The translations under genes were made by a program, and so were the position numbers. From an uncultured Muribaculaceae bacterium (GTDB taxonomy: Bacteria > Bacteroidota > Bacteroidia > Bacteroidales > Muribaculaceae): 64,000 bases of DNA. Below the pieces are notes generated by a model. That model had not been told where the DNA came from. It worked only from the letters and a program-made list of their open reading frames with translations, and did no database searches. This document shows, one piece after another, positions 818 through 24,702 of this stretch (position 1 is the first letter of the stretch; every line of letters starts with the position of its first letter). The stretch covers positions 38,381 through 102,380 of the forward strand of contig CAJUPY010000007.1 in the NCBI GenBank assembly GCA_910588035.1, read 5' to 3'.

Positions 818-821
818 AGGT

Positions 822-1295
822 TTATAATTTATAACCGGTCAGTAATGATACGTCGGAATCCAGTTTATCTATGCGATATAACTCTTTCAAACATTCAGCA
901 ATCGAGGTAAGTCGTTCGGTTTCAGCAAGGAAATTTTTTAAACTTTTCCATGTCATTAATACATTTCCTTTTTGTGGCAACTGAAAGACTATATGAGGCG
1001 ACATTCCAACACCCGACCACTGCCACATTACGTTGGTAGTTAACATTATTCCCTCGGGCAGGCAGTTAGCAGCCAACGCGGAAAGGACTCGCTGGCGAAA
1101 CAGCTTCTCTTTTGCGAATTTTATATCGAATGCGTTATTTGCGGCAGCAAGGGAGATGAGCCGAATTACTTCTTCTTCTGAAAGTTTCTCAATAAACCCT
1201 CGCTTATTGGATGACTGCCATTTTAAAGAACCGGCCTTGGTAATACGATAGTGAATATCGGAGAACGACAGATCGTTTTCATTCCATGATATCAC
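822..1295 (-). CDS. Hypothetical protein; C-terminal part of a 442-codon paralog of 3338..4654, separated from 1353..2147 by one in-frame TAA
   Basis: Same reading frame as 1353..2147. The 19 codons upstream of its ATG (YGYTDQGEFIIRYENSDDY) also align to the paralog (EYGYTDNHEFVIHYPNERNY). The C-terminal region aligns along its length (WSGVGM, W+SLK.FL, ELY+.D). Confidence 0.6.
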   Translation of the reverse strand: MISWNENDLSFSDIHYRITKAGSLKWQSSNKRGFIEKLSEEEVIRLISLAAANNAFDIKFAKEKLFRQRVLSALAANCLPEGIMLTTNVMWQWSGVGMSPHIVFQLPQKGNVLMTWKSLKNFLAETERLTSIAECLKELYRIDKLDSDVSLLTGYKL

Positions 1296-1352
1296 ATAAT
1301 CATCACTGTTTTCGTAACGAATGATAAACTCTCCTTGATCGGTATAGCCATA

Positions 1353-2147
1353 TTAAAGTTTAAGTTTTTTCAAGAGCTTAACGAGCTCTTTAGATTTCGG
1401 CTTATTTGAAGACTTGGTGGTATATGGAGTATATTTCGAGCTAAAACCCAACTTTTTTGAATAGTCTTTAGATAGCCCATCCGTAAAAAACAATTGGTCT
1501 TCCCGAATTCTACCGTTAGCGCCAATCAAGGATGCAGCCCCCGATGAGAGTAACGACATATTAATCTGTTGACGGGTTCTCAGTATTCTCTCTATGCCTT
1601 CTTCGTAATTGTCTGAGCCAACATTAGTACGCAGCAGTACACCCGGCAGCAGTTCAGTGCGGATACTTACTCCAAAAGTATCGTCAGGCCACATAAATCC
1701 ATAGCATTTATACTCAGTGTCATCTGTCAATTCAGCCGATAAAACAGACTCCACAAGAGTTTTCAGCACATCTCTTTGTTTCTCCTTGGATATTACCTTT
1801 TCCTGTTCAGTTCTAAGCGCATCCAGAGCCTCAGCCATACGTTTTAAGCGCGGAATCATACTTTGTAATGCTTCCGGAGCGAATGAAAACGGTTGTATCG
1901 TTTTATTCTCTGCATACATATCAATGCGATACATATTCCCATTCTCAGTAGAACGAATACTTGCAGTGATGAAATAATCATCAGCAACAATTATCTTGAA
2001 AGAATTGTCGGAATAATTATATTCGAAATCAAATCCTGCCTGTTCAAGTTGAGCAGGAATAATTTGTGATAGGTCCGGGAGTGGTATTTCTATTTTCTCA
2101 ATAGAATTTATTATCTCCCACAAATTTGATTCGGTTATTTTTGCCAT
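1353..2147 (-). CDS. Hypothetical protein; N-terminal part of the split paralog of 3338..4654
   Basis: 264-aa ORF. It aligns to residues ~1-265 of the 438-aa protein (PLP.L....IP...EQAGF.FEY, SFKIIV.D, LSKDY.KK.G, KPKS.EL+K.L.KLKL). It ends at TAA 1353..1355, where the paralog has Glu. The start is 1 nt downstream of the AAA+ stop. Confidence 0.65.
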   Translation of the reverse strand: MAKITESNLWEIINSIEKIEIPLPDLSQIIPAQLEQAGFDFEYNYSDNSFKIIVADDYFITASIRSTENGNMYRIDMYAENKTIQPFSFAPEALQSMIPRLKRMAEALDALRTEQEKVISKEKQRDVLKTLVESVLSAELTDDTEYKCYGFMWPDDTFGVSIRTELLPGVLLRTNVGSDNYEEGIERILRTRQQINMSLLSSGAASLIGANGRIREDQLFFTDGLSKDYSKKLGFSSKYTPYTTKSSNKPKSKELVKLLKKLKL

Positions 2148-2148
2148 A

Positions 2149-3216
2149 TCAGTTAGTGCTCTTTATAAAGTTACTGAATTCAAGAATTAGCTGCGGTAGT
2201 TTCTTTGCAAGATAGCCATTGGCTTTGGGATAGCTGCCGCCAAGAAATGCATTGATAAAGTAAGCGTATGCCTCACGCTTGCCGGCATCCTGCAACCATT
2301 GGAAATATGACGAAATATTCTTCTGCATTGGCTCCGTGAATTGCGCAACCCCCTTCAACGAATTGAGCGCCTCGAGAATATCATCATTGAGTAGGGTGAA
2401 ATTCTCCACCGGGAATTGCTCTAATTTTGGAAGAACGGCGTCAAAAGATTTCAGAACATCCATTCCTGTCACACTCCCATCGTTCAGTGACTCTACAAAC
2501 TCTGAAGCTGCTTTTGCGCCAACAATACCTGCAATCATTTTTGCCAGAACAGGAGTGATCTCCGGTTGTCCCGCTATGGCTTTGGCCACGCGTTCCCACG
2601 CTCGGCGGTCGGGCGTTTTGTCAAGCGCGTTGGCTGTAGGGTCAAAGCGGCTGTCGAGCATCGACGGTTTCCGCTGAATGAATGACACAACACGCGGGTC
2701 AAGATCCTGCGATTTGGCCCATTTCAACCAGTCATTAGCCGTTGGACGCAGATTGTAGATATTGAAACGCGATACCAGCGCAGGGTCCAGATCTCCCACC
2801 TGATATTCCTCTCCATCGTTAACAGCTGAAACAATTCGACTTCCTTCAGGCAGTTTGCGCCCAGCAAGCTTGCGGTTCAACACAAGATCCATCACCGTCT
2901 GAAGCATTTCAGGTCGGGCACGGTTCAGCTCATCGAGAAAGAGCACTATCGGCTTCCCATCTGTGGGAAACCAATATGGAGGCATGAAATCAGTTTTCCC
3001 GGTTGTTTCATTCAACCGAGGGAGTCCGATAAGGTCACCTGGGTCACTCATTTGTCCGAGAAACAAAGCGGTTACGGTTATGCCCTTGCCTGTGAAATAA
3101 TCTTCGACAATACGAGATTTACCAATGCCGTGACTACCCACGAGCATAATATTTTGGTCGGCCGGTGTCGACTCAAAAATCTCATATAACTCTTTTACAC
3201 TGATTCCGATTGCCAT
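2149..3216 (-). CDS. MoxR-like AAA+ ATPase (AAA_5 type, CbbQ/NorQ/YehL-like)
   Basis: Walker A GSHGIGKS, Walker B VLFLDELNRA, sensor/Arg-finger region DPALVSRF. Size is 355 aa with a single AAA+ module. It is followed in the operon by a VWA protein, the classical MoxR partner. Confidence 0.85.
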   Translation of the reverse strand: MAIGISVKELYEIFESTPADQNIMLVGSHGIGKSRIVEDYFTGKGITVTALFLGQMSDPGDLIGLPRLNETTGKTDFMPPYWFPTDGKPIVLFLDELNRARPEMLQTVMDLVLNRKLAGRKLPEGSRIVSAVNDGEEYQVGDLDPALVSRFNIYNLRPTANDWLKWAKSQDLDPRVVSFIQRKPSMLDSRFDPTANALDKTPDRRAWERVAKAIAGQPEITPVLAKMIAGIVGAKAASEFVESLNDGSVTGMDVLKSFDAVLPKLEQFPVENFTLLNDDILEALNSLKGVAQFTEPMQKNISSYFQWLQDAGKREAYAYFINAFLGGSYPKANGYLAKKLPQLILEFSNFIKSTN

Positions 3217-3337
3217 TTGATTTACATTTAATACTTATGGAGTGTTAGTTTGGATAGAGATAGACATTCCCCGCGACTCGGCGAAGCAATCCGCCGTACA
3301 CTGCGTTCATAGTTTAGAGACATTGCTATATTCGAGT

Positions 3338-4654
3338 TTATCCTGTGGTAATCTTGACATTCGAATCAGTTGAATCTAATTTGTAAAGTTCGCCGATGAT
3401 ATGAGCTACTTTCTCCAGGCCGTCTGTGTCGTTTAGGAATTCTTTCAGACTTCTCCAACGAATTCGGATAAGGCCGCCTTTAGGAAGGCCCACTGCAAAC
3501 TCCAAAAACATACCAACCCCAGACCATTCTAATTGCGAAGAATAGAGCAGAAGCGTTTCGGCGGGCATGATGTTTTTAGTCATTGCAATCAGTAAAATGC
3601 GACGAAAAGTTGCGTCTGAGCCTGGTTCAGGGGGAAATGCACCATGTTGGAAAGCCAGAGTTATAAATTTAATAACCTCCGATTCTGTTAGTTTTTCAAC
3701 GAGCCCATTTTTAAAAGACTTGCGACGCCTCTTAAACTCTCCTTTCGGGGTGATATTGTACTGGATATCGTAGAACTTAGAATCATCTTCGTTCCACATC
3801 AGAACATAATTTCGTTCATTGGGATAGTGAATCACAAACTCATGATTGTCGGTGTAGCCATACTCCAGTTTCAGCTTTTCTAAAGTTTTTATGAGCTGTG
3901 TTGACTTTGGCTTATACATCTGTGATTTAATCGAATACGGCACGAAGTCAGCCCCGAATAATTTTTTTGTCTCTTTGGTGTAGTCCTTGTTAAGACCATT
4001 CGCCAGTCGGCCGCCACGATAGCCAATCGATAAACCATCCATTTTAGGAAAGACTCCGGTGCCGAACTCGGTCGAAAATTGGGTTACAACTCTTAGGTGG
4101 TTATCTAATACATCAGTATAGTTACTTGGTACATCTGTCCGGATGTAGGAGGAAAGTGTTACTGTCGGAAACAGCTCTGTACACACCACTATGCATGGTT
4201 TTCTATTTTCGTCTCTCCCTAAGAGGCACTTATACGGGACCACCATATTGTGTGTTTCGAGATATGACCTGATGAGTTGGCCCATATCTGCATTTTCGGT
4301 TTGTTTGGCCTTAAGTTTCTGTAAATATGCTTCAGTCTTTCTTAGTTTCGGCATATATGAGAAAAAGTTGTCGGGCTCAAAACAATTATTATCACTGCTT
4401 ACATCTCCGGCATATATTATCACTTGATAACGCTTGATTCCATCGGCGTGTTGAACTATTGTAGCCTCCATACGAAGTTCATCATTCACGATGATTTTAA
4501 ATGAGCAGTCTTCCGGGCTGAACTCGTATGTGAACCCGGCTTCCTGAAACATTTGGGGGATGACAGTTTCCAAATCTAATTTTGGTAACGGTTCATCTGT
4601 CATCCATATATCATCAATTTTGTCTATAAATTGCTGAGGGTTAACAAAATTCAT
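3338..4654 (-). CDS. Hypothetical protein (438 aa), intact paralog of the split gene 822..2147
   Basis: Long ORF in operon orientation. It shows end-to-end similarity to 1353..2147 plus 822..1352. I recognise no family motif. Confidence 0.7.
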   Translation of the reverse strand: MNFVNPQQFIDKIDDIWMTDEPLPKLDLETVIPQMFQEAGFTYEFSPEDCSFKIIVNDELRMEATIVQHADGIKRYQVIIYAGDVSSDNNCFEPDNFFSYMPKLRKTEAYLQKLKAKQTENADMGQLIRSYLETHNMVVPYKCLLGRDENRKPCIVVCTELFPTVTLSSYIRTDVPSNYTDVLDNHLRVVTQFSTEFGTGVFPKMDGLSIGYRGGRLANGLNKDYTKETKKLFGADFVPYSIKSQMYKPKSTQLIKTLEKLKLEYGYTDNHEFVIHYPNERNYVLMWNEDDSKFYDIQYNITPKGEFKRRRKSFKNGLVEKLTESEVIKFITLAFQHGAFPPEPGSDATFRRILLIAMTKNIMPAETLLLYSSQLEWSGVGMFLEFAVGLPKGGLIRIRWRSLKEFLNDTDGLEKVAHIIGELYKLDSTDSNVKITTG

Positions 4655-4684
4655 CTTGTTCAGATATTTGTAAATGGTATTGAT

Positions 4685-5050
4685 TTAGTTATATATTACG
4701 TTGATTTTGATATTTACGGGTTGGTCGGGGGACTTGGTGTAGCCCCAGGCGATGGAGGGTTGGGAGGGGATGTTGCAGAGTTCGTTGGCATAGAGTGCCA
4801 TCTGCCACATTTTGCAGCAGTATTGCTCTCGCACCGACAGGTTGAAAACGATGTCGGAGGCTTCTTTCAGGCCGGGGAGGGCGAGAAACTGTTGCATCAC
4901 ATCCTCAATCTCGTTGCCTTGGAGGGAGTGGAATTGCACTTCGCCGCCTCCTTGAAGCAGGGGCGCGATGTCCTTGTCCCAGTCGAGGGCTATTAGGCGT
5001 TCTCCTTCGGTGGGGATAAACGCCTGCCTTATGTTGTTGATGTCAATCAT
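4685..5050 (-). CDS. Hypothetical protein (121 aa)
   Basis: The ORF start overlaps the stop of the upstream ORF by 1 nt (TAATG), suggesting translational coupling. No recognisable motif. Confidence 0.5.
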   Translation of the reverse strand: MIDINNIRQAFIPTEGERLIALDWDKDIAPLLQGGGEVQFHSLQGNEIEDVMQQFLALPGLKEASDIVFNLSVREQYCCKMWQMALYANELCNIPSQPSIAWGYTKSPDQPVNIKINVIYN

Positions 5051-5511
5051 TAATTCAGGAAGGGAAGTGAGAGTTCGTACTCCTCGGGGAACATGTCGTC
5101 GCCCTCGTCGATTTCATCTTCGGGTGAAGACTCCACCCCGAGAGCAGCGTAGGAGCGTGAGGCATCGTTGGTGATAACACCTTCGTGTGCGGCATCATAT
5201 ATTACATATACGGCTTTAACCATCCCATTAATAGCCTTGATGGGGTCGTAGAGCTGGGGGATGTAGTTGTTGGTCTCGATGTCGATTACGAATTTGCCAA
5301 GCAGCTGCTTTTGCTCCACCTTTTCAAACTGCTTCTCGCTGTCGCCGTTGGCCTCGATCTGCGCCTTGGCTACGATAACCATAGCCGCTTCAATAGCCTC
5401 GGCTGTGCCTTTGAGGATGAAGATGGTATGCACAGGATTGACGGGACAGCTGTAAGGCAACCCACTCTCGTCAATGTCGTGATAGTAGAATTCTGAATAG
5501 TCGTTACTCAT
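5050..5511 (-). CDS. Hypothetical acidic protein (153 aa) with a strongly acidic C-terminal tail
   Basis: I take the internal Met (MSNDYSEFYYHD...) at 5511, 5 nt after the stop of 5517..5765. The 218-aa version in the track would overlap that gene by about 190 nt. The tail is SSPEDEIDEGDDMFPEEYELSLPFLN. Confidence 0.5.
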   Translation of the reverse strand: MSNDYSEFYYHDIDESGLPYSCPVNPVHTIFILKGTAEAIEAAMVIVAKAQIEANGDSEKQFEKVEQKQLLGKFVIDIETNNYIPQLYDPIKAINGMVKAVYVIYDAAHEGVITNDASRSYAALGVESSPEDEIDEGDDMFPEEYELSLPFLN

Positions 5512-5516
5512 AGTGG

Positions 5517-5765
5517 TTAGTTTATTAAAGCGATGAAGGCTCGGCGCATGTCGGAAATGAACTGTCCGAAACGGGGATTGCGGAACATGGTCCAGGGGCG
5601 AAGCAGCAACAGCCACATGGCGGCCGCCACCCATAGTGCAATCTTGATCCAAAGCGTCTCGATTACTGTGACAGCAATTACGGCCATCACTACGGGCACA
5701 CCCCACAGCGACAGCAAAAATGCCAACATCAGCACCACCATTGTCAGTAATCTCAGTTTCGACAT
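5517..5765 (-). CDS. Small membrane protein (82 aa, about 2-3 TM helices)
   Basis: Hydrophobic stretches LLTMVVLMLAFLLSLWGVPVVMAVIAVTVI and IALWVAAAMWLLLL. Operonic position. Confidence 0.5.
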   Translation of the reverse strand: MSKLRLLTMVVLMLAFLLSLWGVPVVMAVIAVTVIETLWIKIALWVAAAMWLLLLRPWTMFRNPRFGQFISDMRRAFIALIN

Positions 5766-5876
5766 CTTATTAAAATCTTGTTATTCATACCATCAGCGAA
5801 GATAGCCAATACCGTACAAAACGGACGGGAAATGCGCCTGTTCAAGACTTGTTCTTGCACTCTTTAGCGATATGCT

Positions 5877-6479
5877 TCATTCCTTTGTGGCATCTCTGAG
5901 TGAAGCGACTTTGCTAACGAGATTGGTCGCGAAGTCAGGGTCTTTCCAATAGGGAAAACCACGATCTCCTTGGTATTTTCCGAGCAGGCCACCGAGATCA
6001 TTCCACATCAATTTGCGATACTGCTTTTCGTCAAGCGAAGTTAGGTCAAAGTCGGGAAACCACTGATGGATAAGCCATTTGTAAGCATCTTCGGGAATCG
6101 CTTCGCCGCATTTGTTCTTAGTGAGTTGTCCAAGCAGTGCATTGGGCATATCCATCTCAAACAGATAGCAGCAATGACCTACATCGCCCGGGGCAATCAT
6201 GAGGTCGAAAACTATCAATTCTACTTCCGACATAGGAGCCTGCTGATACTTGGCTGTAAAGTTTTTCACTTCCACACAGATGCCATAGTTGACATTGCCC
6301 TTTTCGAGCGTGTCAAGCAGGTGGGCGGCTGCTGCGCGTGTGGTTTCATCGGGGCAGCGCACTTCAAGCAGCCAGTCGCGCTGTGTTTTGCCCTCGTGTT
6401 CTTCGAGCCATGCTTTCATGGCCTCAAGTTTACTGAAGTTGTTCATATTGTGGTCGATGATTAATTCATTTTGAAACAT
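5877..6479 (-). CDS. Hypothetical protein (~200 aa)
   Basis: ORF 5877..6515. Candidate starts are 6515, 6479 (MFQNELII...) and 6446 (MNNFSKLE...), so the start is uncertain. No recognised motif. Confidence 0.5.
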   Translation of the reverse strand: MFQNELIIDHNMNNFSKLEAMKAWLEEHEGKTQRDWLLEVRCPDETTRAAAAHLLDTLEKGNVNYGICVEVKNFTAKYQQAPMSEVELIVFDLMIAPGDVGHCCYLFEMDMPNALLGQLTKNKCGEAIPEDAYKWLIHQWFPDFDLTSLDEKQYRKLMWNDLGGLLGKYQGDRGFPYWKDPDFATNLVSKVASLRDATKE

Positions 6480-7044
6480 TTTTAACCCAGTCGTGCATCT
6501 GTTGAAAATGTTCATTCGGTTCTGGGTCTCCCAGGCAGATGATCAAAATGGCAATCAGTATGAACACTACAAGCAGCGCACCGCCAATTGTAATCCATTC
6601 ACGCGTTTCCTGTTTGAGTTCGAGCCATTTGGGATAGCGACGTGCGATGAGTTTGTCGAGCGCATTGGGGCCTGATTCCTTTCGAGGAGAATTTTTGCCT
6701 GCGTTGGCCAAAGGATTTTCTCCTCGGGCAATCTGAGCGTCAATATCCAATAAAGCCTGAGAATTGCCCACGGCTGTTATCATTTTAATCTCATCAGAAG
6801 ACACTACCGTTCCTTTAAGGAATGTTTCTCCGACATATGCAGCCATTTCGCCATTATAGCCATCGCGCATTCCCATTTTGAATTCGATATATTTCTCAAT
6901 AGGTATCTCAACCGGCTTACTTAGCCTGTCACGATGTTTTGTCCCGGGTGGAACCTCAAACATCACACGAACTTTATCACTCATACATTCAGATGCTAAA
7001 CGATGGATGAAAGGTCTCTCTTTAAAAAATAACCTTTCATCCAC
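6466..7044 (-). CDS. Hypothetical tail-anchored membrane protein (192 aa)
   Basis: Single C-terminal TM segment WITIGGALLVVFILIAILIICLG. It starts 16 nt downstream of the 67-aa ORF. Confidence 0.5.
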   Translation of the reverse strand: MDERLFFKERPFIHRLASECMSDKVRVMFEVPPGTKHRDRLSKPVEIPIEKYIEFKMGMRDGYNGEMAAYVGETFLKGTVVSSDEIKMITAVGNSQALLDIDAQIARGENPLANAGKNSPRKESGPNALDKLIARRYPKWLELKQETREWITIGGALLVVFILIAILIICLGDPEPNEHFQQMHDWVKNVSK

Positions 7045-7060
7045 CCTTTGGATTAAGTTT

Positions 7061-7264
7061 TTATCTCAGTTCCTCGCGACGACAGTTGAGCTGAATGTGC
7101 TGGGTGTCAGGACGCAGACCATACTTGCGCTCGAAAGCGTCTTTTGCATTGTCATAGTCAAAGCCGCCACTCATGTTGCTGGGAGCCTCAACTGAAGCAC
7201 CTTTGGGAATACATCCACCATTGCAATAGATATTGTCAGTCACTGTTAGTCTGTAAAGTACCAT
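7061..7264 (-). CDS. Small protein (67 aa) with a CNGGC motif, function unknown
   Basis: ATG at 7264, 27 nt after the amidohydrolase stop. It is preceded at -24 by the same conserved ~29-39-nt element found upstream of the 45-aa peptide ORF. Confidence 0.45.
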   Translation of the reverse strand: MVLYRLTVTDNIYCNGGCIPKGASVEAPSNMSGGFDYDNAKDAFERKYGLRPDTQHIQLNCRREELR

Positions 7265-7287
7265 ATTTTAATAATTTAAGGTGTTTT

Positions 7288-7326
7288 GTGCCTACGTCCT
7301 TTCAAGCGATTCGGCTGATTCTATGT
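7288..7326 (-). repeat. Copy A of an imperfect direct repeat, 23 nt upstream of the 67-aa ORF start
   Basis: Base-by-base alignment with 9774..9812 (offset 2486): 25/29 identical in the core (gtgcctacNNcctttcaagcgNNtcggct) and 31/39 overall. Copy A overlaps the last codons of the amidohydrolase (..AESLERT*). Confidence 0.6.
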
Positions 7327-8089
7327 ATGATTGGGACTCTCCCACAGCTTTCGTTAGGTAGAGTCGTTTGAAGTTGTTGGTCAGAACATCATCTGATATG
7401 TCGTTGGAGAAGTGTATTTGCAGCCAATCAATCCGACTTTTAAGATACTCTGTTGTATCTTTATGTCCGAAATGCTCGGTTATGGGACAATCCGACCCAA
7501 ACAGGATACGTTTATCCAACCCACTCTTGACGTAAGACGCTATGTCAGATACCTCCATGAAAGCGGTATCGACAAATGTATTATGGTATTTTGACAAGAG
7601 AGCCAGCGATTCGTCATTGGGCCGACCATGAGCTAATATAAATTGTCGGTCAGGATTCATCCGTATCAATCTGTCGAACACAGCAGCATGACATTCCGGG
7701 AATAATCCGGTATGCAGCAGAACCGGTAAGTGACTTAATCGGGAATCCTTTATAACTCTGTCAACAAGCGATTCATCATAAAAGAACTGTGGATGTGACT
7801 GCCAATGCATTTTAATCCCTTGCCAGTTGACGCCGGAATCAAGCATCTTGTCTATGGCATTTGTCTCTATCATCTTTGGAGTTACCCACAGGAATGGATA
7901 GCAGTTATCGGCCCATTCTTCTTGCAGCCAGCTCATTTCATGGATTACCAAGTCGTATTCCTCCGCGCATGTAGAGGTTGATGACACTGCAATCGTATCC
8001 ACTCCGGCATTACGCAACATCACAGTCACGTCATCGGGTGAATGATAGCGGTCAACAAACCAACCTATATGCACATGCGCGTCAGTCAT
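7292..8089 (-). CDS. Metal-dependent TIM-barrel hydrolase (amidohydrolase_2-like)
   Basis: N-terminal DAHVHIG (HxH metal ligands), internal LLHTG and ILAHG, C-terminal ILFGSDCP (terminal Asp ligand). The start overlaps the radical SAM stop by 8 nt (ATGACTGA). Confidence 0.75.
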   Translation of the reverse strand: MTDAHVHIGWFVDRYHSPDDVTVMLRNAGVDTIAVSSTSTCAEEYDLVIHEMSWLQEEWADNCYPFLWVTPKMIETNAIDKMLDSGVNWQGIKMHWQSHPQFFYDESLVDRVIKDSRLSHLPVLLHTGLFPECHAAVFDRLIRMNPDRQFILAHGRPNDESLALLSKYHNTFVDTAFMEVSDIASYVKSGLDKRILFGSDCPITEHFGHKDTTEYLKSRIDWLQIHFSNDISDDVLTNNFKRLYLTKAVGESQSYIESAESLERT

Positions 8090-9542
8090 TACTTTGCTCT
8101 CTGGCTTCTTCCACTAATCGTTTGTTCAGGTGGGCGACTTTGCAGAAGTGGTCATTCACTTTAAACATATCTCCACCATTCTCGTTATAGTTGCGCACCA
8201 TGCACATGGCACAGTAGTCCGCAGCTTCACATTCTATGCATTGAGGGAAATCGCGTCGGGTGACATTACGTATTTGCTGTATCTTTTCAGATGACTCCCA
8301 GACCTCTTTCAGACTTTGCTTATAGACATTTCCGACAACGAAACTCTGCCATCCGGCGCAAGGATAAAGGTCACCATTAGCGGCAACACAGATGTCATTT
8401 AAACCTGCACCACACATCGGACCATCCAAGAATTCATCCTGATCGGATGTGAGCGGATTTAGTTCCTGACGCATGGCGGTGTAATCCTTATCGTATTTGA
8501 TGATGTCACGTAAAAGTTCCTCGGTTTCCTCAATGGAAATGCGGTTGGCGAGGTTGTCTGTATCAAGGTCTGCTCTCGCCATCATTATGAAATCTGTTTG
8601 AGCCTTGATGCCTTTGCTTTGGGCATACTTCAATACGTCCTTATAACCGAGCCGGTTCGCTTTCATTACAGGACATGAAACTTGAACGGGAATATCCGCA
8701 GCTACAAGCCGTTCAATAGCATCTTTGGTTTTGTCGAAAGACCCCTTGATTGTGGTTATGTAGTCATGTATCTCTGGATCCATGCTATATAGCGACGTCT
8801 GCACTAATGCCACATTGGTTTCTTTCAGTGCCAGAATGAGTTCTTCGTCTAATGAAATCAGATTTGAGAGCAGCGTAATCTGAAGGTCGTTCTTTCTGCA
8901 ATGTCTCAGAATCTCAATTAAATCTTTATGCAAGAGGGCCTCCCCTCCTGAAAGCGTCACCGCAAAACCACCCATAGATGCAAATTCATCGAGAATAGAT
9001 TTGACTTTCCCGACAGGCATATTAATTCCGTGGTTTTTCTTGGGATTAGGGATATAGCAGTGAATACACCGCTCATTGCACTTGCTTGTCAGCTCGAACT
9101 GGATTACTGTGATTCGCGGATTCTTTGAATCATGACGGAAAGCAAAACCTTCGGTCGGGCTATAATTGTGAAGTTGTTTAAATCGTTGGTCGAAGTCCTT
9201 GGCCAGTTCTTTAGGGTTAACCAGACTATAAGAAAAATCAATATCCTTGGAATCAATATCCGACTCGCTTTCAGAGCGTAAAACGAACTTCGCGTCCTCA
9301 AGAATCATCATCATGTCAACAAAATCGGCATAGATTTCGCGTGGGTCGGCATCTTCGTACATCTTGCACACTTCATTAGCCAAATCCAATTCCTCTTGCG
9401 GTTCTCGGGATAACACGGAGAGAAATGCCGCACCTGAATTATTGAACATGGCGTCATGACGTGTAAGCTGGTTTGTTATATAACCCAGTTCCCCGTCATC
9501 ATAGATTCTGACGTATGTGTTTTTTGACAGTTTTACCTTCAT
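8082..9542 (-). CDS. Radical SAM / SPASM-domain peptide maturase with an N-terminal PqqD-like (RRE) region
   Basis: CxxxCxxC motif in ELTSKCNERCIHCYIPN. C-terminal auxiliary-cluster cysteines: MCGAGLNDICVAANGDLYPCAGW ... FPQCIECEAADYCAMCMVRN ... HFCKVAH. The first ~95 aa (AAFLSVLSREPQEELDLANEVCKMYEDADPREIYADFVDMMMILEDAKFV) resemble PqqD-type peptide-binding domains. Confidence 0.85.
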   Translation of the reverse strand: MKVKLSKNTYVRIYDDGELGYITNQLTRHDAMFNNSGAAFLSVLSREPQEELDLANEVCKMYEDADPREIYADFVDMMMILEDAKFVLRSESESDIDSKDIDFSYSLVNPKELAKDFDQRFKQLHNYSPTEGFAFRHDSKNPRITVIQFELTSKCNERCIHCYIPNPKKNHGINMPVGKVKSILDEFASMGGFAVTLSGGEALLHKDLIEILRHCRKNDLQITLLSNLISLDEELILALKETNVALVQTSLYSMDPEIHDYITTIKGSFDKTKDAIERLVAADIPVQVSCPVMKANRLGYKDVLKYAQSKGIKAQTDFIMMARADLDTDNLANRISIEETEELLRDIIKYDKDYTAMRQELNPLTSDQDEFLDGPMCGAGLNDICVAANGDLYPCAGWQSFVVGNVYKQSLKEVWESSEKIQQIRNVTRRDFPQCIECEAADYCAMCMVRNYNENGGDMFKVNDHFCKVAHLNKRLVEEAREQSND

Positions 9543-9611
9543 GGGTGATAATCATGGTTTAAGGGAACTGGAGCTAACCAAATTGATACTTCTCCAGTTC
9601 CCTGATGTGTC

Positions 9612-9749
9612 TTACTGGCGACATTCGCAAGTTTTGCAAGCACCTGCGCTCGCATGTCCCTGGTGAGGCATGCCTGCTCCACATCCGGCAGCATAAGAAC
9701 CGGTGGGGGCGTTCTTCGCAATCATGGCGGGTTTTACATACTTTTTCAT
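9612..9749 (-). CDS. Candidate RiPP precursor, 45 aa, Cys-rich C-terminus (SCIFF-like)
   Basis: Internal Met of track ORF 9612..9968: MKKYVKPAMIAKNAPTGSYAAGCGAGMPHQGHASAGACKTCECRQ. It ends 69 nt upstream of the rSAM/SPASM gene on the same strand. Four Cys sit in the last 23 residues. The GCG and ACKTC motifs resemble the SCIFF consensus as I remember it. Confidence 0.55.
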   Translation of the reverse strand: MKKYVKPAMIAKNAPTGSYAAGCGAGMPHQGHASAGACKTCECRQ

Positions 9750-9773
9750 TGTGATATGAATTGATGTAGATTG

Positions 9774-9812
9774 GTGCCTACCGCCTTTCAAGCGCCTCGG
9801 CTTTCTCTTTGT
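9774..9812 (-). repeat. Copy B of the same imperfect direct repeat, 24 nt upstream of the 45-aa peptide ORF start
   Basis: See copy A. Copy B lies in non-coding sequence. Confidence 0.6.
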
Positions 9813-10119
9813 GGCACCTTGGAGTATGGGTATAAAAAAAGCGTGGTGCCGTACTTGCTGTCCGTTCCCACGATTCGAGGCCTTCGCATTGCCTATCCTT
9901 GTAAGGAACGAAACAACGCAGAGGCCCACGCGAAATATGTAAGTATACGCGATGTGCCGCATCCCCACGCATGGGGTTACGGCTCACGGCGGATAGAGTT
10001 ACATATCCAACATGGCATCTACCGTTGCTCCGATTCTGACAAGGATATTTGGGAAGTTGCGAAGTTCCGAATCGTCAGAACTGAAGCGTTAAGTAAACGC
10101 TTTCAGTATGTTATGCCGA

Positions 10120-10127
10120 CAAAATTA
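10120..10127 (-). promoter_or_regulatory. Candidate Bacteroidetes -7 promoter box (TAATTTTG) for the minus-strand island
   Basis: The reverse complement of caaaatta matches the TAnnTTTG consensus. There is no good -33 TTTG. It would give a ~360-nt leader before the peptide ORF. Confidence 0.25.
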
Positions 10128-10319
10128 ATCATTAATTCTTATACTGCAAGAATAATTGTGATTAATTACCGATTTATAGCTGAAATAGCCTCTGCATTGC
10201 CGATGCAAAGATGGCGGTTATATTTGAAACGACCGAAAAATCGGGCGTTCACTCCGTTCATTAAAGAAGTATTATCCGGATTTATCGCGATTTATCACGG
10301 TAAAACGGGATAAAACCAC

Positions 10320-10327
10320 TATATTTG
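10320..10327 (+). promoter_or_regulatory. Candidate -7 promoter box (TATATTTG) for 10345..11091
   Basis: Matches TAnnTTTG, 18 nt before the ATG, with TTTA about 20 nt upstream. Confidence 0.35.
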
Positions 10328-10344
10328 AAAAAAAATAAAATTCT

Positions 10345-11091
10345 ATGGGCGTTGATATCAAGTTTTCGCAATCTTATTTCTGGCTTGATTCCTGGATTAT
10401 GGCCAATATAATACAGCTTGGTACAGTGAGTTTTTGTGATCGTTTTGTCGATTATAAGATAGACCCGTGCCGAAGGCTTTATGACCAGATGGTGTTGGCT
10501 GCCCGTTGTTGCACGGCCAATATTGCCGAGGGTACAGCCCGATATTCGACTTCAATCGAGACTGAGATGCGTCTGCTTGATGTTGCCCGCGCCAGTCTTG
10601 ATGAATTGCAGGGTGATTTTTTTCATTATCTTCTGCGCTGCAAAGCTGAAGTCTGGGCAATAGGAAACTCTGATCGGGAAACTCTCTGGACTATGAAATT
10701 GGATACCCCTCAGTATTCCAACAGTCTTTTCCATGATGCTGCTGAGCATATTCTTAAGCAGAAAGCCAAATTTACCCCATGGATTGATAGCGATGTTCCT
10801 ACGGTTGTTGCCAATGCGTTGCTGATTCTTTGTGCAAGAGTCAACCGCATGTTGGAATCTCAGTTGCAGAGTCTGCTGAAACGGTTTCGTCAACAAGGTG
10901 GCTTCACTGAGAATATGACTTCGGAACGTATTGAAGCCAAGCGCCAGCAATCAAAAGAAGGTGGGGCACCTTCATGTCCGAAGTGTGGCAAGCCGATGAT
11001 ACGGCGTATGCAAAAGAAAGGGCAAGGTCAGGGACGGGAGTTTTGGGGTTGCTCTGATTATCCGGGTTGTAATGGCATTAAGAGTATTTGA
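10345..11091 (+). CDS. Four-helix-bundle protein (23S rRNA IVS / Avd-like) fused to a C-terminal topoisomerase-type C4 zinc ribbon
   Basis: LAARCCTANIAEGTARYS is the family-typical NIAEG motif; LDVARASLDELQ also fits. The C-terminus CPKCGKPMIRRMQKKGQGQGREFWGCSDYPGC matches the Topo I-type zinc-finger pattern. Confidence 0.7.
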   Translation: MGVDIKFSQSYFWLDSWIMANIIQLGTVSFCDRFVDYKIDPCRRLYDQMVLAARCCTANIAEGTARYSTSIETEMRLLDVARASLDELQGDFFHYLLRCKAEVWAIGNSDRETLWTMKLDTPQYSNSLFHDAAEHILKQKAKFTPWIDSDVPTVVANALLILCARVNRMLESQLQSLLKRFRQQGGFTENMTSERIEAKRQQSKEGGAPSCPKCGKPMIRRMQKKGQGQGREFWGCSDYPGCNGIKSI

Positions 11092-11171
11092 GGACGATGT
11101 GTGAACGCTGTGAACGCTCATAATTTATGACCTACAACACTAAACGTCATATATTTGCGTAAAAAACAAAT

Positions 11172-11723
11172 ATGCTAAATGATAAGATAAAAGAAATGAT
11201 TCTGGAGAAATTCAATTCTCCAATCCAGTACCCGCAGCAGTGCGAGGCTCTTGCCATGGCTATTCAGGAAGCCACGGGGCAGACTTTAGGCACGACGACA
11301 TTGAAGCGCATGCTCGGCTTTGTCAACGGACCGGCTAACCCGCGCCCGTCGTCGCTCGACATTGTGGCGCAGTATCTCGGCTATCCGGACTATAATCTGT
11401 TGGCAAAGGATTTAGGGGAGGATGCGGAAATTTCTGATTTCCGGGCGGTGGAAAGTATCGCTTCGGCCGACCTCATGCCGGGAGAGCAGATACAGGTGAC
11501 CTATCATCCCAACCGGCTGTTGGTGCTGAGTTATATGGGCGAGAACAAGTATCTTGTCAACGAATCGCGTGGCAGCAAACTTATGAAAGGGGACATTCTC
11601 ACCATCGCAGGCTTCTACGTCGGTTTTGAATTGCTGATAAGTGACGTCGAGCGCGACAAGAAGCACCTCGGCTCCTATCAGGCGGCCAAGCAGGGCGGCT
11701 TGACCGGAGTGGAGATCATTTGA
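11172..11723 (+). CDS. Hypothetical protein (183 aa)
   Basis: Clean ORF with an ATG and a possible N-terminal HTH-like segment (TLGTTTLKRMLGF). No firm family assignment. Confidence 0.5.
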   Translation: MLNDKIKEMILEKFNSPIQYPQQCEALAMAIQEATGQTLGTTTLKRMLGFVNGPANPRPSSLDIVAQYLGYPDYNLLAKDLGEDAEISDFRAVESIASADLMPGEQIQVTYHPNRLLVLSYMGENKYLVNESRGSKLMKGDILTIAGFYVGFELLISDVERDKKHLGSYQAAKQGGLTGVEII

Positions 11724-11743
11724 GATGGCAGCGGTGTCGATAT

Positions 11744-13036
11744 TCATGGCATAGTCTTCTTGCCTCTACGACGTTTATCATGAAAATACAAATCACTCAT
11801 TTCCGAATCTTTTCGCATGAATTTTCCCCATTCCTTGGAAGTGAATAATACATTCATTATATACCATCGATCCTCATACCAATCAAAATGATTGCACACA
11901 CTTGAGATTATATCACTCTGAGCCTTCATCTGTCTTTCCACATATGGACTGAGAGCTTCATCCAGTTGCTCTCCGGTGGATGTGGAGTCGTTCACCAACT
12001 CTATCAGATAGTCCAACTCCGCATGCAGAGGGCCGTAATACTTCAGGACAATTTCATCACCGATTTTAGTTATATAAGCAGAGTCCGGCTTCTGAGGTTC
12101 CACTGCTTTCTTTTTGGGCGTAGGGGGCGTCACCTGCACTACTGACTGCACGGTCGGCGTATCCACACGACTGCTATCAGCTTTAGCTATATTGATTGTC
12201 GTATCGGGTATAGTAATCACAGTCGGGGGAGTCGGTTCAGCGAGCTTATCAATCGGAGTTTGGTTGCTATTGACATACCATAAAGACAGTGATAAACCAA
12301 GCACCAATGAGCTTATCAATAATAGCCAAAGATTGTTTATGCCCCTTGGCTCAAGCGTGTGTTTGATCGACTCTACCGACACGGCGTCCTTTTCGCAGAG
12401 TCGCGCAACCTTGTCCTGTCCGAGCTGTGACGCTATCTTGCCGAGTCCACGGAAATCAATAGCTCCGTCGGCACAGTTGTCACATCCATATTTCTGAGTG
12501 TTGCCGTGGGTCGAGTCGAGCCATGAGGTGTATGCCTTGTCGAGGTCGATGAGCGTCGCGGGGCGGTCGTCGTAAGGAGAGATGATGACATTATCTGCCT
12601 TGATGTCACAGTGCACGATGTTACGGTGGTGGAGATAATCTACAACGTCAACCAATTCAAGCAGCAATCGACCGACAAACTTACGGTTCTTGAGCCGCGG
12701 GTCATCGCGCTTTATCAGTTCGGCAAGCGTATCCCCCTCGATAAAGTCCATGACAATGTAATCACCACCGAATCCTACGTAGCGGGGCAACGACGGATGA
12801 CTCAGCGTCACGCCGAGGTCGTACTCCTTGTCGAAAGCCGCGCGATACAGGGGATTGTCGCGATACTCGGCTTTGAGCCGCTTGACGAAAACGCGCCGCC
12901 GCTGCACCACACACTCATATGCATCACACGTAGAGCCGCTCCTGTCCAATGGTTTGGCCAAGGCGAAATCAACAGCCATCGAAGCCGCCTCGTTCCTGCT
13001 GTCAAATCCTGATACTATGATATTGTCGTCTTTCAC
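11744..13036 (-). CDS. Atypical protein-kinase-like membrane protein (Ser/Thr kinase fold, one TM, C-terminal domain of unknown function)
   Basis: VFVKRLK (VAIK-like Lys), catalytic loop HRNIVHCDIKADNVII, LIDLDKA in place of DFG. No obvious APE motif. TM segment LWLLLISSLVLGLSLSLWYV. Pro/Thr-rich linker. Confidence 0.75.
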   Translation of the reverse strand: MKDDNIIVSGFDSRNEAASMAVDFALAKPLDRSGSTCDAYECVVQRRRVFVKRLKAEYRDNPLYRAAFDKEYDLGVTLSHPSLPRYVGFGGDYIVMDFIEGDTLAELIKRDDPRLKNRKFVGRLLLELVDVVDYLHHRNIVHCDIKADNVIISPYDDRPATLIDLDKAYTSWLDSTHGNTQKYGCDNCADGAIDFRGLGKIASQLGQDKVARLCEKDAVSVESIKHTLEPRGINNLWLLLISSLVLGLSLSLWYVNSNQTPIDKLAEPTPPTVITIPDTTINIAKADSSRVDTPTVQSVVQVTPPTPKKKAVEPQKPDSAYITKIGDEIVLKYYGPLHAELDYLIELVNDSTSTGEQLDEALSPYVERQMKAQSDIISSVCNHFDWYEDRWYIMNVLFTSKEWGKFMRKDSEMSDLYFHDKRRRGKKTMP

Positions 13037-13061
13037 ACCGCAAAGATAGCGAGAATATTAG

Positions 13062-13097
13062 TAAAAAAGAGAGGCTGTGACAAAAATCACAGCCTCT
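13062..13097 (-). terminator. Rho-independent terminator after the S8 peptidase gene
   Basis: Perfect 11-bp stem (agaggctgtga / tcacagcctct), 6-nt loop, followed on the minus strand by CTTTTTT. Confidence 0.7.
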
Positions 13098-13140
13098 GCA
13101 GGGATGAGTATATGTTCTTCAACGAATTGACATCGGATTG

Positions 13141-15348
13141 TTATCTGACAGTCAGTTTGCGGGTGGCGCGTCCCGACTTGCCGTTGACCTCGAGCAGATA
13201 GATGCCACCGGTGAGCGACGAGGCGTCGAGTTCGGCCGATTCGCTGCCTGTGACGACCAATTTGACGGCACCTCCCGAGAGCGAATAGAGCGTGGCGGTG
13301 AAGCCGTCGGCCTGATCAAAGAAGATCGTGAACAGACGACCGTCGGTTGTAATCACTTTCAGCCGGCTTTCAGCATCAGACTCAATGTTGTCGACGCCAC
13401 CCGTGCCTTTGGTTGCTATCACTTCCTTGATTCCACGCAGCGCATTGATCTTGCCGGCACCCCACCATACATCTGATGTCACACCGGTCGTGGTTGCCGT
13501 AGACTCCATGATCGAACGGGCCTTTCCGACCGTCAGATCGGGATCGGCTTCGAGCCAAAGACCAACCGTACCGGTCACAAACGGAGTGGCCATTGATGTG
13601 CCCTGCTCCACCACCCAGTAGTTCTGACGGTCAACACCGTTGACCTTAGACGTTGTCACAGCCGAAGCGGTGGCCTTTTGGGCTGTGTTGGCATTGAGGT
13701 AGGGTGTGCTGTATGATGATATGATACCAGTTCCGGGAGCTGTGATCATCGGCAGATTGCGTCCGTCGGCCAAAGTGCCCCACGACGAGTAGCTCGCGAT
13801 TGCGTTGACGGGGAACGGTGAGGTGTAGGAATAGATATCGCCGTTGATCACCGGCCACCGGTTGCGGGTGTTGAACGCACCGACAACGATGATATTTTCG
13901 CCGCATGCCATTCCGCTGATCGAGCCGTCGGTATTTCCGTTATCCCAGCCGGCTATTCCGTTATTGGTGAACTGATTGACGTTTGAGGTGTAGACATCGA
14001 TGCGCTCTCCGCTCTTGCCTTTGATCAAAAACCCGAGGTGGATATTGTTGTTTGAAGCTTTGGCGGTCACATTGTTGCAGTCCAGACCGATTGTGAAGCG
14101 GTTGTTGTTCGGGTCGAGATTTGGATAGAATGTGATCGAACCGGAGAAATTGTTTGCGAACACCTGCGATACCTGTGAGTTCAGCATAGTGGCCTTGTCG
14201 GCAGGCACAGAGATTGTCTCGACCACCTGTCTGGCGGTCTTGTCAAAGAGAACGACACTGAGATTGATCATGTCGCTTGATGTGCTCCAGATCTCGACAT
14301 TGCCTCTGATTGTGTCATTTTGCGCGAAAAACTTCAGCTCGGTGTCATTGGCGGTAAATGTCTTTCCGGCATGAATGTTGGCATCGCCATCGTTACCGGC
14401 GGCGACACAGATGATCGCTTCCTCACCCAACTCGGCAAGAGCCTTCGAGGTTGCGTCAGTGCCGTCGTGAGGGCCCGAATTGTCTCCGAGCGACAGATTG
14501 ACTGTCAGCGGTTTGTTGACCTCCTTGGCATAATTGATCATCTGCCTGATTCCGACCAGAATCGAGTTGGTGTAAAGCTGACCGGCGCAGATGACGAGAT
14601 TAGCCTCGGGAGCGACACCAAAATAAGGCAGATTGGTGCCGGTTGTGACCTGCCCCATGTCGTTGAGCAGCTTGAACGTAGCCTCACCGTCATAGGAACC
14701 TCCCATGATGCCGGCAACGTGGGTTCCGTGTGTCTTGCTCGTCAGATCGGTGGGCGCGGTCATGATCTCGTCGCCGGTATATTGTTTTGAGGTTCCACTT
14801 CCGGTGAATCGCCAGTACGACTCGATGCGGCTCGTCGTGCCGTCGGCGTTCATGAAATTGACGTGCTGCGGATCGAATCCGGTGTCAAACATGCCGACCA
14901 ACACCCCGTCGCCCTTGAAAGGACGGTTCTGGAGCATAGACTCGCCGAGACCGGTGCCACAGTGAACGGCATTGACCGATCCGGCATTGCGAGCCTTGTC
15001 CATCATCGGGCGCGACATCGTGCCGAAAGACGCGCTTTCAACAGCGTCGATGTTTTCGAGACTCCCGATCTCGTTGACAGGCATGTAGACTATCGAGAAA
15101 TTCTCAGAAACATAGAAAGTCTCATAGCCACGGGCCTCAAGCTCGGCGACAGCACTGTTTCCGTCACTCTGAATCAAAACGGCGGTCATGTCGTTTTCAT
15201 CTTGCCCGACTGACATTGTCTTCAGAGCTGCCGGCTCGGCTTTGACCTTCTCGAGTATCTGCCGCCCCTCGAAGTTGAATTTGCTCTGGGCCAAAACTGA
15301 CCCTGCGGCAGCGAGTGTCAGCAGTAGTGAAATGTAAAATCTATTCAT
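13141..15348 (-). CDS. S8 family (subtilisin-like) serine peptidase with a T9SS C-terminal sorting domain
   Basis: Catalytic triad motifs FDTGFD, HGTHVAGIMGG and GTSMATPFVTG. Signal peptide MNRFYISLLLTLAAAGSVLA. The C-terminal ~80 aa end in GGIYLLEVNGKSGRATRKLTVR, typical of Por secretion tails. Confidence 0.9.
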   Translation of the reverse strand: MNRFYISLLLTLAAAGSVLAQSKFNFEGRQILEKVKAEPAALKTMSVGQDENDMTAVLIQSDGNSAVAELEARGYETFYVSENFSIVYMPVNEIGSLENIDAVESASFGTMSRPMMDKARNAGSVNAVHCGTGLGESMLQNRPFKGDGVLVGMFDTGFDPQHVNFMNADGTTSRIESYWRFTGSGTSKQYTGDEIMTAPTDLTSKTHGTHVAGIMGGSYDGEATFKLLNDMGQVTTGTNLPYFGVAPEANLVICAGQLYTNSILVGIRQMINYAKEVNKPLTVNLSLGDNSGPHDGTDATSKALAELGEEAIICVAAGNDGDANIHAGKTFTANDTELKFFAQNDTIRGNVEIWSTSSDMINLSVVLFDKTARQVVETISVPADKATMLNSQVSQVFANNFSGSITFYPNLDPNNNRFTIGLDCNNVTAKASNNNIHLGFLIKGKSGERIDVYTSNVNQFTNNGIAGWDNGNTDGSISGMACGENIIVVGAFNTRNRWPVINGDIYSYTSPFPVNAIASYSSWGTLADGRNLPMITAPGTGIISSYSTPYLNANTAQKATASAVTTSKVNGVDRQNYWVVEQGTSMATPFVTGTVGLWLEADPDLTVGKARSIMESTATTTGVTSDVWWGAGKINALRGIKEVIATKGTGGVDNIESDAESRLKVITTDGRLFTIFFDQADGFTATLYSLSGGAVKLVVTGSESAELDASSLTGGIYLLEVNGKSGRATRKLTVR

Positions 15349-15587
15349 GAATGGAATGTAATTTAATAGAACATATTGCTCAGATAATAACGCAACGGCG
15401 ACTGCATTTATTGTGCAGCCGCCGTCTATAGTCAGATGTTTGAGTTCACTTTAACGTGCGAGGTTCATGTCTTTGGCCTTGAAGCTCTTCAGACCGATTT
15501 TCTTCGAGCCGTCCTTGACGATCTTCATGTCGCCGAGACCGGCCTTGAAGGGAACGACGGTAGCGGTTTCCTCTACCTCGACGGGGT

Positions 15588-16682: not shown

Positions 16683-16689
16683 CTATAGA

Positions 16690-18315: not shown

Positions 18316-18336
18316 TGCCTTTAGTCGTTATTGTTG

Positions 18337-21588: not shown

Positions 21589-21689
21589 ACTAATTTATTA
21601 ATAAGACAATAGAATTAATTATTGAGTCAAAATGAAGATAAACAGCACGTTTTGCATTCCACTTGATAAGTAGAAGTGAAAGTTTCGCG

Positions 21690-21697
21690 CAAAGTTA
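21690..21697 (-). promoter_or_regulatory. Candidate -7 promoter box (TAACTTTG) upstream of SusC 18337..21588
   Basis: The reverse complement of caaagtta matches TAnnTTTG, about 100 nt before the ATG. Confidence 0.3.
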
Positions 21698-21816
21698 ATA
21701 CATTTTTAACGATTATAAGCAAGATATATTATGGAAAATGACGATTTAACATTTAAATAATATTGTTTTATAGCATAATTGTGCGATTATGTTGTAAAAA
21801 ACGCGATAAAACACAA

Positions 21817-21849
21817 GAAAACCCCGGAACGCGGTGTCCCGGGGTTTTC
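21817..21849 (-). terminator. Rho-independent terminator after the fimbrillin gene
   Basis: 11-bp stem gaaaaccccgg / ccggggttttc with an 11-nt loop, followed by T-rich sequence on the minus strand. Confidence 0.6.
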
Positions 21850-21870
21850 AAAGAGCGGTTATGTCAGTTA

Positions 21871-22950: not shown

Positions 22951-22976
22951 AAAATAAAAGATTAAATAATTATAAA

Positions 22977-24586: not shown

Positions 24587-24702
24587 TAATGTTTGTCTAT
24601 TATTAACATCTTGAAACGTCTGATTGTTGCACGAAACCGATATTAACGTGACTCAAAAACCCACAAAATCTCCTATCAGTTGCAACAGTTGGAAATTTTG
24701 CG

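Follow-up and report, generated by a model that had tools for sequence, protein, structure and literature searches.

The stretch of DNA analysed here, hereafter the window, comprises 64,000 nucleotides from an uncultured Muribaculaceae bacterium, and carries a compact cassette of three genes within about 2.5 kb: one for a 45-residue peptide, one for a predicted peptide maturase of the radical S-adenosylmethionine (SAM)/SPASM type, and one for an amidohydrolase-superfamily enzyme (AH). A preliminary description of the locus had proposed a cluster for a peptide made on ribosomes and modified after translation (RiPP), composed of the peptide, a radical SAM/SPASM enzyme with a RiPP recognition element (RRE) and an amidohydrolase. 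The layout it described was recovered in full, with the short open reading frame (ORF) ending 69 nt upstream of the maturase gene, and with the start of the AH gene, recognisable by its DAHVHIG and GSDCP motifs, overlapping the maturase stop by 8 nt (Table 1). The window carries the minimal form of the cassette. Peptide, maturase and AH are inherited together across Bacteroidales and a few other anaerobe lineages and, judged from its sequences, the cassette is a real, widespread and apparently unstudied family of modified peptides.

Table 1. Features of the cassette and its surroundings. Coordinates are positions in the 64,000-nt window; the cassette genes are all on the minus strand.
Feature	Position (nt)	Strand	Evidence
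Precursor peptide gene, 45 aa, MKKYVKPAMIAKNAPTGSYAAGCGAGMPHQGHASAGACKTCECRQ	9612..9749	-	ORF; same-strand homologues in 76/81 loci
Leader-like conserved segment, residues 1-22, MKKYVKPAMIAKNAPTGSYAAG	9684-9749	-	Position-by-position conservation
Cys23, variable loop and C-terminal CKTCECRQ, residues 23-45	9615-9683	-	Family motif CxxC-E/D-xxx
Peptide stop codon	9612-9614	-	
Stem-loop with 12-bp stem, between peptide stop codon and maturase start	9562..9603	-	Folding compared with shuffles
Predicted RRE-radical SAM/SPASM maturase, 486 aa	8082..9542	-	Pfam, invariant Cys, PDB profile, AlphaFold
Amidohydrolase-superfamily TIM-barrel enzyme (AH), 265 aa	7292..8089	-	Pfam Amidohydro_2, invariant residues, AlphaFold
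67-aa ORF, 27 nt downstream of the AH gene	7061..7264	-	Weak DUF6140 resemblance
Membrane-anchored Ser/Thr protein kinase, 430 aa	11744..13036	-	Pkinase 1.6e-12; outside the core cassette
183-aa kinase-pairing protein, no known family	11172..11723	+	Recurs in 28/81 loci

Relatives of the maturase are plentiful: more than 3000 homologues are present in the protein collection, an identical sequence is on record from an uncultured Duncaniella sp. (Muribaculaceae), and relatives were detected in 520 of the approximately 185,000 GTDB species genomes, nearly all of them gut or rumen Bacteroidales. The 80 best loci and the window, 81 in total, were taken as the sample, in which all ORFs were clustered into families for the analysis of linkage, while the peptide was sought by a six-frame scan for G[SA]Y[ASV]AGC. 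A short ORF with this motif, encoded on the strand of the maturase, is present in 76 of the 81 loci, and the five loci without a peptide have cut or short upstream flanks. AH is located downstream of the maturase, on the same strand, in 72 of the loci, with contig ends responsible for seven of the nine absences. The preliminary description had named a failure of the small ORF to be conserved beside orthologues of the maturase as an observation that would speak against a peptide cluster; both the ORF and the hydrolase proved to accompany these orthologues, and the three genes are conserved together.

The two true absences of AH, L068 and L075 (the latter being Phocaeicola massiliensis DSM 17679, NZ_KB905473), fall into one subfamily, and no hydrolase gene is present within 6 kb in either; the locus of a further member, L074, is cut by a contig end. 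The peptides of this subfamily possess an N-terminal extension and end in C-x-x-C-D-Y-G-G. L075 is also the only isolate genome that was recognised among the 80 loci. At the opposite end of the range, the six distant AH homologues that were inspected, with 31-33% identity to the window protein, from other lineages and one of them carrying a Synergistaceae name, all adjoin a radical SAM/SPASM gene, and all six have a peptide of the same family nearby, as exemplified by MAYSKPKVKARSARRMSFAAGCPEQTHGNWNCYSCEIQKD and MKKYVKPQLVAKNNPTGSFAAGCPAKECHHTACIRCERTN.

The 78 distinct peptides of the sample, 38-61 residues long, follow the pattern MKKYxKxxxIAKNxPxGS[Y/F]AAGC-P-(variable loop)-CxxC-E/D-xxx. 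Their first 22 residues are strongly conserved (M-K-x-Y-x-K-x-x-x-x-A-K-N-x-P-x-G-S-Y-A-A-G), and in this leader segment A, N, G, Y, A, G and C are invariant and S nearly so. The Tyr of GSYAAG is replaced by Phe in distant family members, and chemistry at the Tyr hydroxyl is thus not required. In an alignment of 39 sequences neither Cys23 nor the final Cys of the CxxC pair varies, and Cys23 is usually followed by Pro. The loop between them is very variable in length and sequence, with abundant Gly, Pro, Ser and Asn. The C-terminal end has a fixed geometry: CxxC is followed by exactly four terminal residues in 73 of the 78 peptides (the other five have CxxxC), and the residue after it is Glu or Asp in 68. 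Outside the leader-like segment, the conserved positions besides the Cys are Pro24, this Glu/Asp, and the next residue, which is mostly Arg. Three Cys are found in 50 of the 78 peptides and four in 28, the window peptide belonging to the latter group.

Searching the protein collection with the peptide profile gave 1194 or more clusters (90% identity), all of them without a Pfam domain and without any name beyond "hypothetical protein". Among the best 120 matches the CxxC[E/D]xxx ending is present in 119, and loops of equal length share approximately 20% pairwise identity. A second family of small Cys-rich ORFs (about 59 aa) was noticed just upstream of the peptide gene in L003, L007, L008, L027 and L035; these often end in EEAENP, have no Pfam match, and resemble ORFs in L058 and L059.

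The maturase is recognised by Pfam as Radical_SAM (6.6e-25) and SPASM (6.2e-12), as the preliminary description had read from the CNERCIHC motif and the Cys-rich C-terminal region. CNERCIHC holds the radical SAM cluster motif C155-x3-C159-x2-C162, the SPASM Cys are arranged as C377...C395, C435-x2-C438-x5-C444-x2-C447 and C467, and C155, C159, C162, C377, C385, C395, C435, C438, C444, C447 and C467 are all invariant. The N-terminal PqqD-like segment, also noted earlier, is sub-threshold for Pfam in the window protein (19.5 bits, cut-off 23.4), but a precomputed PF05402 match exists for about 70 of 120 homologues among the matches listed, and the AlphaFold model (pLDDT, the predicted local distance difference test, 80.8) displays a confident beta3/alpha3 N-terminal domain at residues ~1-100. 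Moreover, the best fold match, SuiB, aligns over about 500 columns with the RRE included, followed by SkfB, DesII, anSME and PqqE, and a profile search of the PDB returned SkfB (1e-18), PqqE, SuiB and CteB as the best relatives. The homologues with PF05402, the predicted domain and the full-length alignment to SuiB all point to an RRE, and the adjacent precursor on the same strand offers a conserved putative recognition segment and a variable core. On these sequence features the enzyme is a predicted RRE-radical SAM/SPASM peptide maturase of no curated family: no NCBIfam model reaches its cut-off, and the best, AhbD, scores 127 bits where 500 are needed. Its chemistry is not readable from homology.

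It is scarcely credible that the small ORF is spurious and that the substrate of the radical SAM enzyme and the hydrolase is a small molecule or another protein, in the manner of anSME or heme-type enzymes. AhbD and NirJ2 give the top NCBIfam scores and anSME appears among the fold matches, as such a role would have it, but all these scores lie far under the cut-offs, an RRE domain is present, and the peptide recurs throughout the sample, always on the maturase strand and with a conserved hairpin after it. Furthermore, no anSME model is found among the 25 families shown, the RRE being a further departure from anSME/AtsB enzymes, and none of the families that recur across the 81 neighbourhoods is a sulfatase. 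A place for the maturase in a sulfatase-maturase or cofactor-biosynthesis clade, which the preliminary description had listed as contrary evidence, was looked for and found in neither case. As a separate observation, maturase variants of about 605 aa, longer at the C-terminal end than that of the window, occur in L010, L015, L017 and L048, with the peptide gene downstream of that for the maturase and a number of further genes ahead of the hydrolase.

The likeness of the peptide to the SCIFF family, suggested by the preliminary description together with a check against TIGR03973 and TIGR03974, did not survive that check. No NCBIfam family was found by hmmscan at E <= 1 for the window peptide or for two other family peptides, TIGR03973 included, and TIGR03974 is absent from the 25 best families listed for the maturase, the lowest of which scores 66 bits; the SCIFF maturase cut-off is not reached. 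The family has three conserved Cys rather than the six of SCIFF, and the supposed SCIFF traits, a length of 45 residues and the GCG and ACKT.C motifs, are peculiar to the window member and its closest relative, L001. SCIFF/ScfB membership was accordingly rejected by the hidden Markov model tests. That the cassette nevertheless represents a divergent member of the SCIFF/ranthipeptide group (ScfA/ScfB, CteA/CteB), forming Cys-Thr gamma-thioethers as in thermocellin, is very improbable. A Cys-rich window peptide with an ACKTC string and the presence of CteB among the PDB sequence matches are in its favor, but CteB (5wgg) matches residues 135-244 only, at 40 bits, the maturase stays under all NCBIfam cut-offs, peptide length is not fixed, and Thr is not conserved. 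In addition, a survey of rumen isolates, in which the ranthipeptide rule keys on TIGR03973, reports such calls to be nearly absent from Bacteroidota (PMC13289728).

A second intact radical SAM/SPASM paralogue, 29-40% identical to the window maturase, is encoded in ten loci (L027, L028, L043, L044, L046, L052, L054, L061, L069 and L077), and a split copy in an eleventh, L079. The peptides of all these loci, L079 included, contain one extra Cys inside the loop. In contrast, a second enzyme is missing from the loci of all 57 peptides that lack an internal Cys (10 against 0; Fisher p = 2.8e-7). The number of radical SAM genes thus tracks the number of Cys, which suggests that each enzyme links at a given Cys, and hence favors thioether formation. 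An 826-aa protein, P0009, was considered as a Rosetta-stone fusion of maturase and hydrolase and rejected as such, as it is instead a fusion of two radical SAM/SPASM modules.

The same relationship bears on whether the maturase performs a non-thioether reaction, such as a C-C or C-O cross-link, an epimerisation or a Cys conversion, with the Cys serving as metal ligands or disulfides. We regard this as rather unlikely. Congruent with this alternative, the best fold match, SuiB, is a Lys-Trp cross-linker, all characterised SPASM enzymes lie at an equally great distance from the maturase, the conserved segment provides an aromatic residue (Y/F) and an Asn, both invariant, and CP...CxxC resembles a three-Cys metal knuckle. 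On the other hand, the parallel increase of radical SAM genes and Cys speaks against it, and few non-Cys residues are conserved beyond the leader-like segment.

The hydrolase starts with MTDAHVHIG, contains GSDCP, and exceeds the Pfam cut-off for Amidohydro_2 (28 bits, cut-off 26.4). Among the aligned homologues Amidohydro_2 is matched in 41 of 41 and TatD_DNase in 27 of 41. No variation is seen at K93, H95, H126, H154 and D200, and conservation is at least 90% at H5 and H7. In the AlphaFold model (pLDDT 93.9) the ligand residues are found at or just after the ends of the TIM-barrel strands (2-11, 91-94, 123-126 and 150-153), with D200 beside a short strand before helix 203-207. The resulting pattern, HxH on strand 1, Lys on strand 4, His on strand 5, His on strand 6 and Asp on strand 8, is the ligand set of dinuclear carboxylated-lysine hydrolases, for example dihydroorotase and phosphotriesterase; the mononuclear decarboxylases of the Amidohydro_2 clade have a different one. 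AH is, as modelled, probably a dinuclear metallohydrolase with a carboxylated-Lys site. A PDB search with the single AH sequence gave no match, and with the AH profile only the uncharacterised Clostridium protein 3cjp and TatD-like DNases. The fold search ranked 3cjp best, followed by LigI, IDCase, LigY, LigJ and ACMSD at a template-modelling score of about 0.6. Transfer of function from these relatives was rejected, as they offer lactonases, decarboxylases and hydratases at this level of similarity only.

Between the peptide and maturase genes of the window, a hairpin is predicted at -24.1 kcal/mol (z -4.3, with 0 of 200 shuffles as stable). A strong hairpin directly 3' of the peptide gene is present in 67 of 78 cases across the loci, and its structure is kept where the sequences are unrelated. 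Hairpins after the precursor gene are common in bacteriocin and RiPP operons and give precursor excess. The element is probably an attenuator, a terminator or an mRNA stabiliser, setting the ratio of precursor to enzyme.

From these data we infer, with a probability of about 0.6 that covers both chemistry and role, a new RiPP family in which Cys cross-links close the variable loop and a dinuclear metallohydrolase then processes the peptide. The peptide would be transcribed in excess, because the hairpin follows its gene, and the RRE of the maturase would bind the conserved N-terminal segment MKKYxKxxxIAKNxPxGS[Y/F]AAG. The radical SAM/SPASM enzyme would next make one or more cross-links using Cys23 and the C-terminal CxxC, the products most likely being Cys thioethers, such that the Gly/Asn-rich variable loop is closed into a ring. 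Cys(-8) is positioned four residues before the conserved Glu/Asp, and a link from Cys to the Glu/Asp after CxxC is thus a concrete candidate; a link of this Cys-Glu/Asp type would be similar to those at the Cx3D/E motifs in freyrasin and QhpC. Finally, the translationally coupled AH may cut an amide bond of the modified peptide, either releasing the leader after AAG or removing the fixed four-residue tail.

Several observations weigh against this proposal. The cross-link type, the partner residue and the bond cut by AH are all inferred. The maturase stands at the same distance from enzymes of the thioether, C-C cross-link, epimerase and cofactor kinds, and its highest NCBIfam scores, far under the cut-offs, come from two models of heme enzymes, AhbD and NirJ2. 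The loci with a second radical SAM gene are mutually related, and the independent events are therewith fewer than 10. The nearest folds to AH are uncharacterised proteins, Amidohydro_2 lactonases and decarboxylases, with no peptidases among them, and AH is not always needed, as the Phocaeicola/Bacteroides subfamily without it demonstrates. Moreover, no exporter, protease or immunity gene is conserved in the 81 neighbourhoods, and secretion of the product is thus unsupported.

The surroundings of the cassette provide information on its probable role. GC content is 42-49% in the first 12 kb of the window versus 50-56% beyond (12000-30000). A phage origin was rejected, IMG/VR giving only one weak match at 33% identity. 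The low GC, the mixed neighbours and the near-absence from viral contigs therefore indicate accessory DNA, and the cassette region fits an acquired accessory island. Two assemblies gave two loci each. In 45 of 76 loci the cassette is interrupted by additional ORFs of 50-500 aa, which lie on the same strand between the genes for peptide, maturase and hydrolase; most have no relationship to one another (singletons make up 29 of 72), 16 of 72 carry predicted membrane segments, and they could be immunity or accessory genes. The variable loop, the extra unrelated ORFs, the two-cassette assemblies and the low-GC accessory DNA together point to a role in strain-level interaction or signalling rather than in housekeeping.

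These features also bear on a different proposal, namely that the product is an intracellular peptide-derived cofactor, or a metal or redox peptide, similar to mycofactocin or PQQ, in which GS[Y/F]AAGC is modified and AH acts in excision as MftE does. A compact operon without exporter would suit such a product, as would the most invariant stretch of the peptide being GS[Y/F]AAGCP, the moderate matches of the maturase to MftC and PqqE, and the coupling between hydrolase and maturase, a feature shared with mycofactocin biosynthesis. Against a cofactor stand a loop that varies in length and sequence next to a strictly conserved C-terminal motif, two assemblies with two loci each, and the location in low-GC accessory DNA. 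No partner oxidoreductases are conserved in the 81 loci, and the cassette is confined to 520 of the roughly 185,000 species genomes. We consequently judge a cofactor improbable, and the RiPP family with Cys cross-links and hydrolytic processing remains our preferred interpretation.

A bolder version of the latter, a new class with an unprecedented cross-link or hydrolase step, whose hypervariable, ring-closed loops serve gut and rumen Bacteroidales as strain-specific signals or weapons that the neighbouring kinase and its partner may sense, can be offered tentatively only. In 32 of the 81 loci, about 40%, a kinase homologue is encoded no farther than 6 kb from the cassette, and in 28, including the window, the approximately 190-aa partner, on either side and in either orientation. 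The 183-aa partner of the window has no Pfam, NCBIfam, PADLOC or PDB match. A defence system was rejected: PADLOC has no match for the peptide or AH, the maturase matches only the generic radical SAM core of pVip (60 bits, residues 146-297), and the kinase is matched through its generic kinase domain only.

The kinase adjoins a subtilase gene (13141-15348, minus strand), encoding a Peptidase_S8 domain and a type IX secretion sorting domain; the subtilase was considered as a leader peptidase and discarded, since it is not kept near the cassette elsewhere. A plus-strand gene (10345-11091), placed between the promoter region of the peptide and the kinase pair, encodes a protein with a four-helix-bundle (23S rRNA IVS-type) domain, a four-helix-bundle suffix domain and a topoisomerase-type zinc ribbon. 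The ORFs at 1-12000 are mostly without a family match, one AAA_5 ATPase being encoded at 2149-3216, and farther away a response-regulator receiver fused to PglZ is encoded at 30251-31798 (plus strand), with genes for an M16 peptidase and a large TPR protein upstream of it. Neighbours in other loci include, by eye, an AbiEi/AbiEii-like pair and DUF4143-like, AAA-ATPase-like and GIY-YIG-like ORFs. The window contains no tRNA, and an Rfam scan of 6000-13500 gave no match at E <= 1.

Membership in the cassette is uncertain for the 67-aa ORF downstream of AH, which the preliminary description took in with its start at 7061 and left undescribed. Its score against Pfam DUF6140 is 20.4 bits (cut-off 27), and tblastn across the other 80 loci gave no significant match; small proteins resembling it by eye are located near the cassette in L001, L003, L043 and L067. 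In both the window and L001 a 67-68-aa ORF adjoins a C-terminally membrane-anchored protein of about 150-190 aa (7061-7264 and 6466-7044, minus strand, in the window; 5088-5294 and 5302-5736 in L001), this pair being downstream of the hydrolase in the window and upstream of the peptide in its closest relative. The two membrane proteins are homologous, and the two small ORFs have no significant similarity.

To our knowledge, no modified-peptide natural product has been characterised from Bacteroidales, an order that dominates gut and rumen communities. Our literature searches found the peptide motif strings in no paper and no description of the peptide family, nothing specific on radical SAM peptides of Bacteroidota, and no paper linking a ranthipeptide cluster with an amidohydrolase. 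Together with the lack of a Pfam or NCBIfam model this is consistent with the undescribed class that had been suspected from the outset. The one survey of Bacteroidales RiPPs that our searches found is restricted to clusters whose precursors carry a GG motif, the majority having peptidase-containing (PCAT) exporters (PMC10352776), and the text of a compendium of radical SAM RiPPs makes no mention of Bacteroidetes or of a hydrolase (PMC10288494). The ranthipeptide rule of antiSMASH, which uses the SCIFF model, would miss the cassette as a ranthipeptide cluster.

With hundreds of species and more than 1000 distinct precursors served by one compact cassette, the system would be tractable for the study of a new radical SAM transformation, and offers a potential new peptide-maturation role for an amidohydrolase-fold enzyme. 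It may also represent a new route by which strains interact in the gut. One extra Cys for one extra maturase is a rule that provides an immediate experimental handle.

How does the cassette compare with established systems? For the hydrolase, which the preliminary description had considered a non-standard partner in RiPP biosynthesis, a single precedent emerged: PurAH/BotAH of the bottromycin pathway, an amidohydrolase-superfamily metalloenzyme that removes the follower, or recognition, peptide from the modified core (PMC10885120). It is the only RiPP precedent for an amidohydrolase-fold peptidase that our analysis found. PurAH/BotAH operates with a YcaO pathway and on a follower, whereas the enzyme described here belongs to the Amidohydro_2/TatD-like branch, and PurAH is not among the PDB matches of the AH profile at E <= 1. 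Mycofactocin (MftA, MftB, MftC and MftE) shares the combination of a small peptide, an RRE, a radical SAM/SPASM enzyme and a peptide-processing hydrolase. The maturase scores 101 bits against the MftC model, with a cut-off of 265, MftE is of the creatininase family, the GVY C-terminus of MftA is absent from the cassette peptides, and the cassette differs further in its variable peptide middle and in having no MftD or MftF homologues.

SuiB of streptide and SkfB of the sporulation killing factor display the same architecture of RRE, radical SAM and SPASM (or twitch) domains as the maturase. They are 14-18% identical to it and differ in substrates and motifs; SuiB generates a Lys-Trp C-C bond, and SkfA relies on further dedicated genes for its export and cyclisation. 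Ranthipeptide and QhpC-type systems (PapB/freyrasin, QhpD and CteB/thermocellin) resemble the cassette in a short Cys-containing precursor beside an RRE-radical SAM/SPASM enzyme, in a Cys four residues before a conserved Glu/Asp (C-x-x-C-E), and in a maturase number that scales with the number of Cys. The cassette is set apart from them by a lack of sequence membership, by three conserved Cys at the two ends of a variable loop, by its own leader motif AKNxPxGS[Y/F]AAG, by its dedicated hydrolase and Bacteroidales hosts, and by a chemistry that is predicted from its genes.

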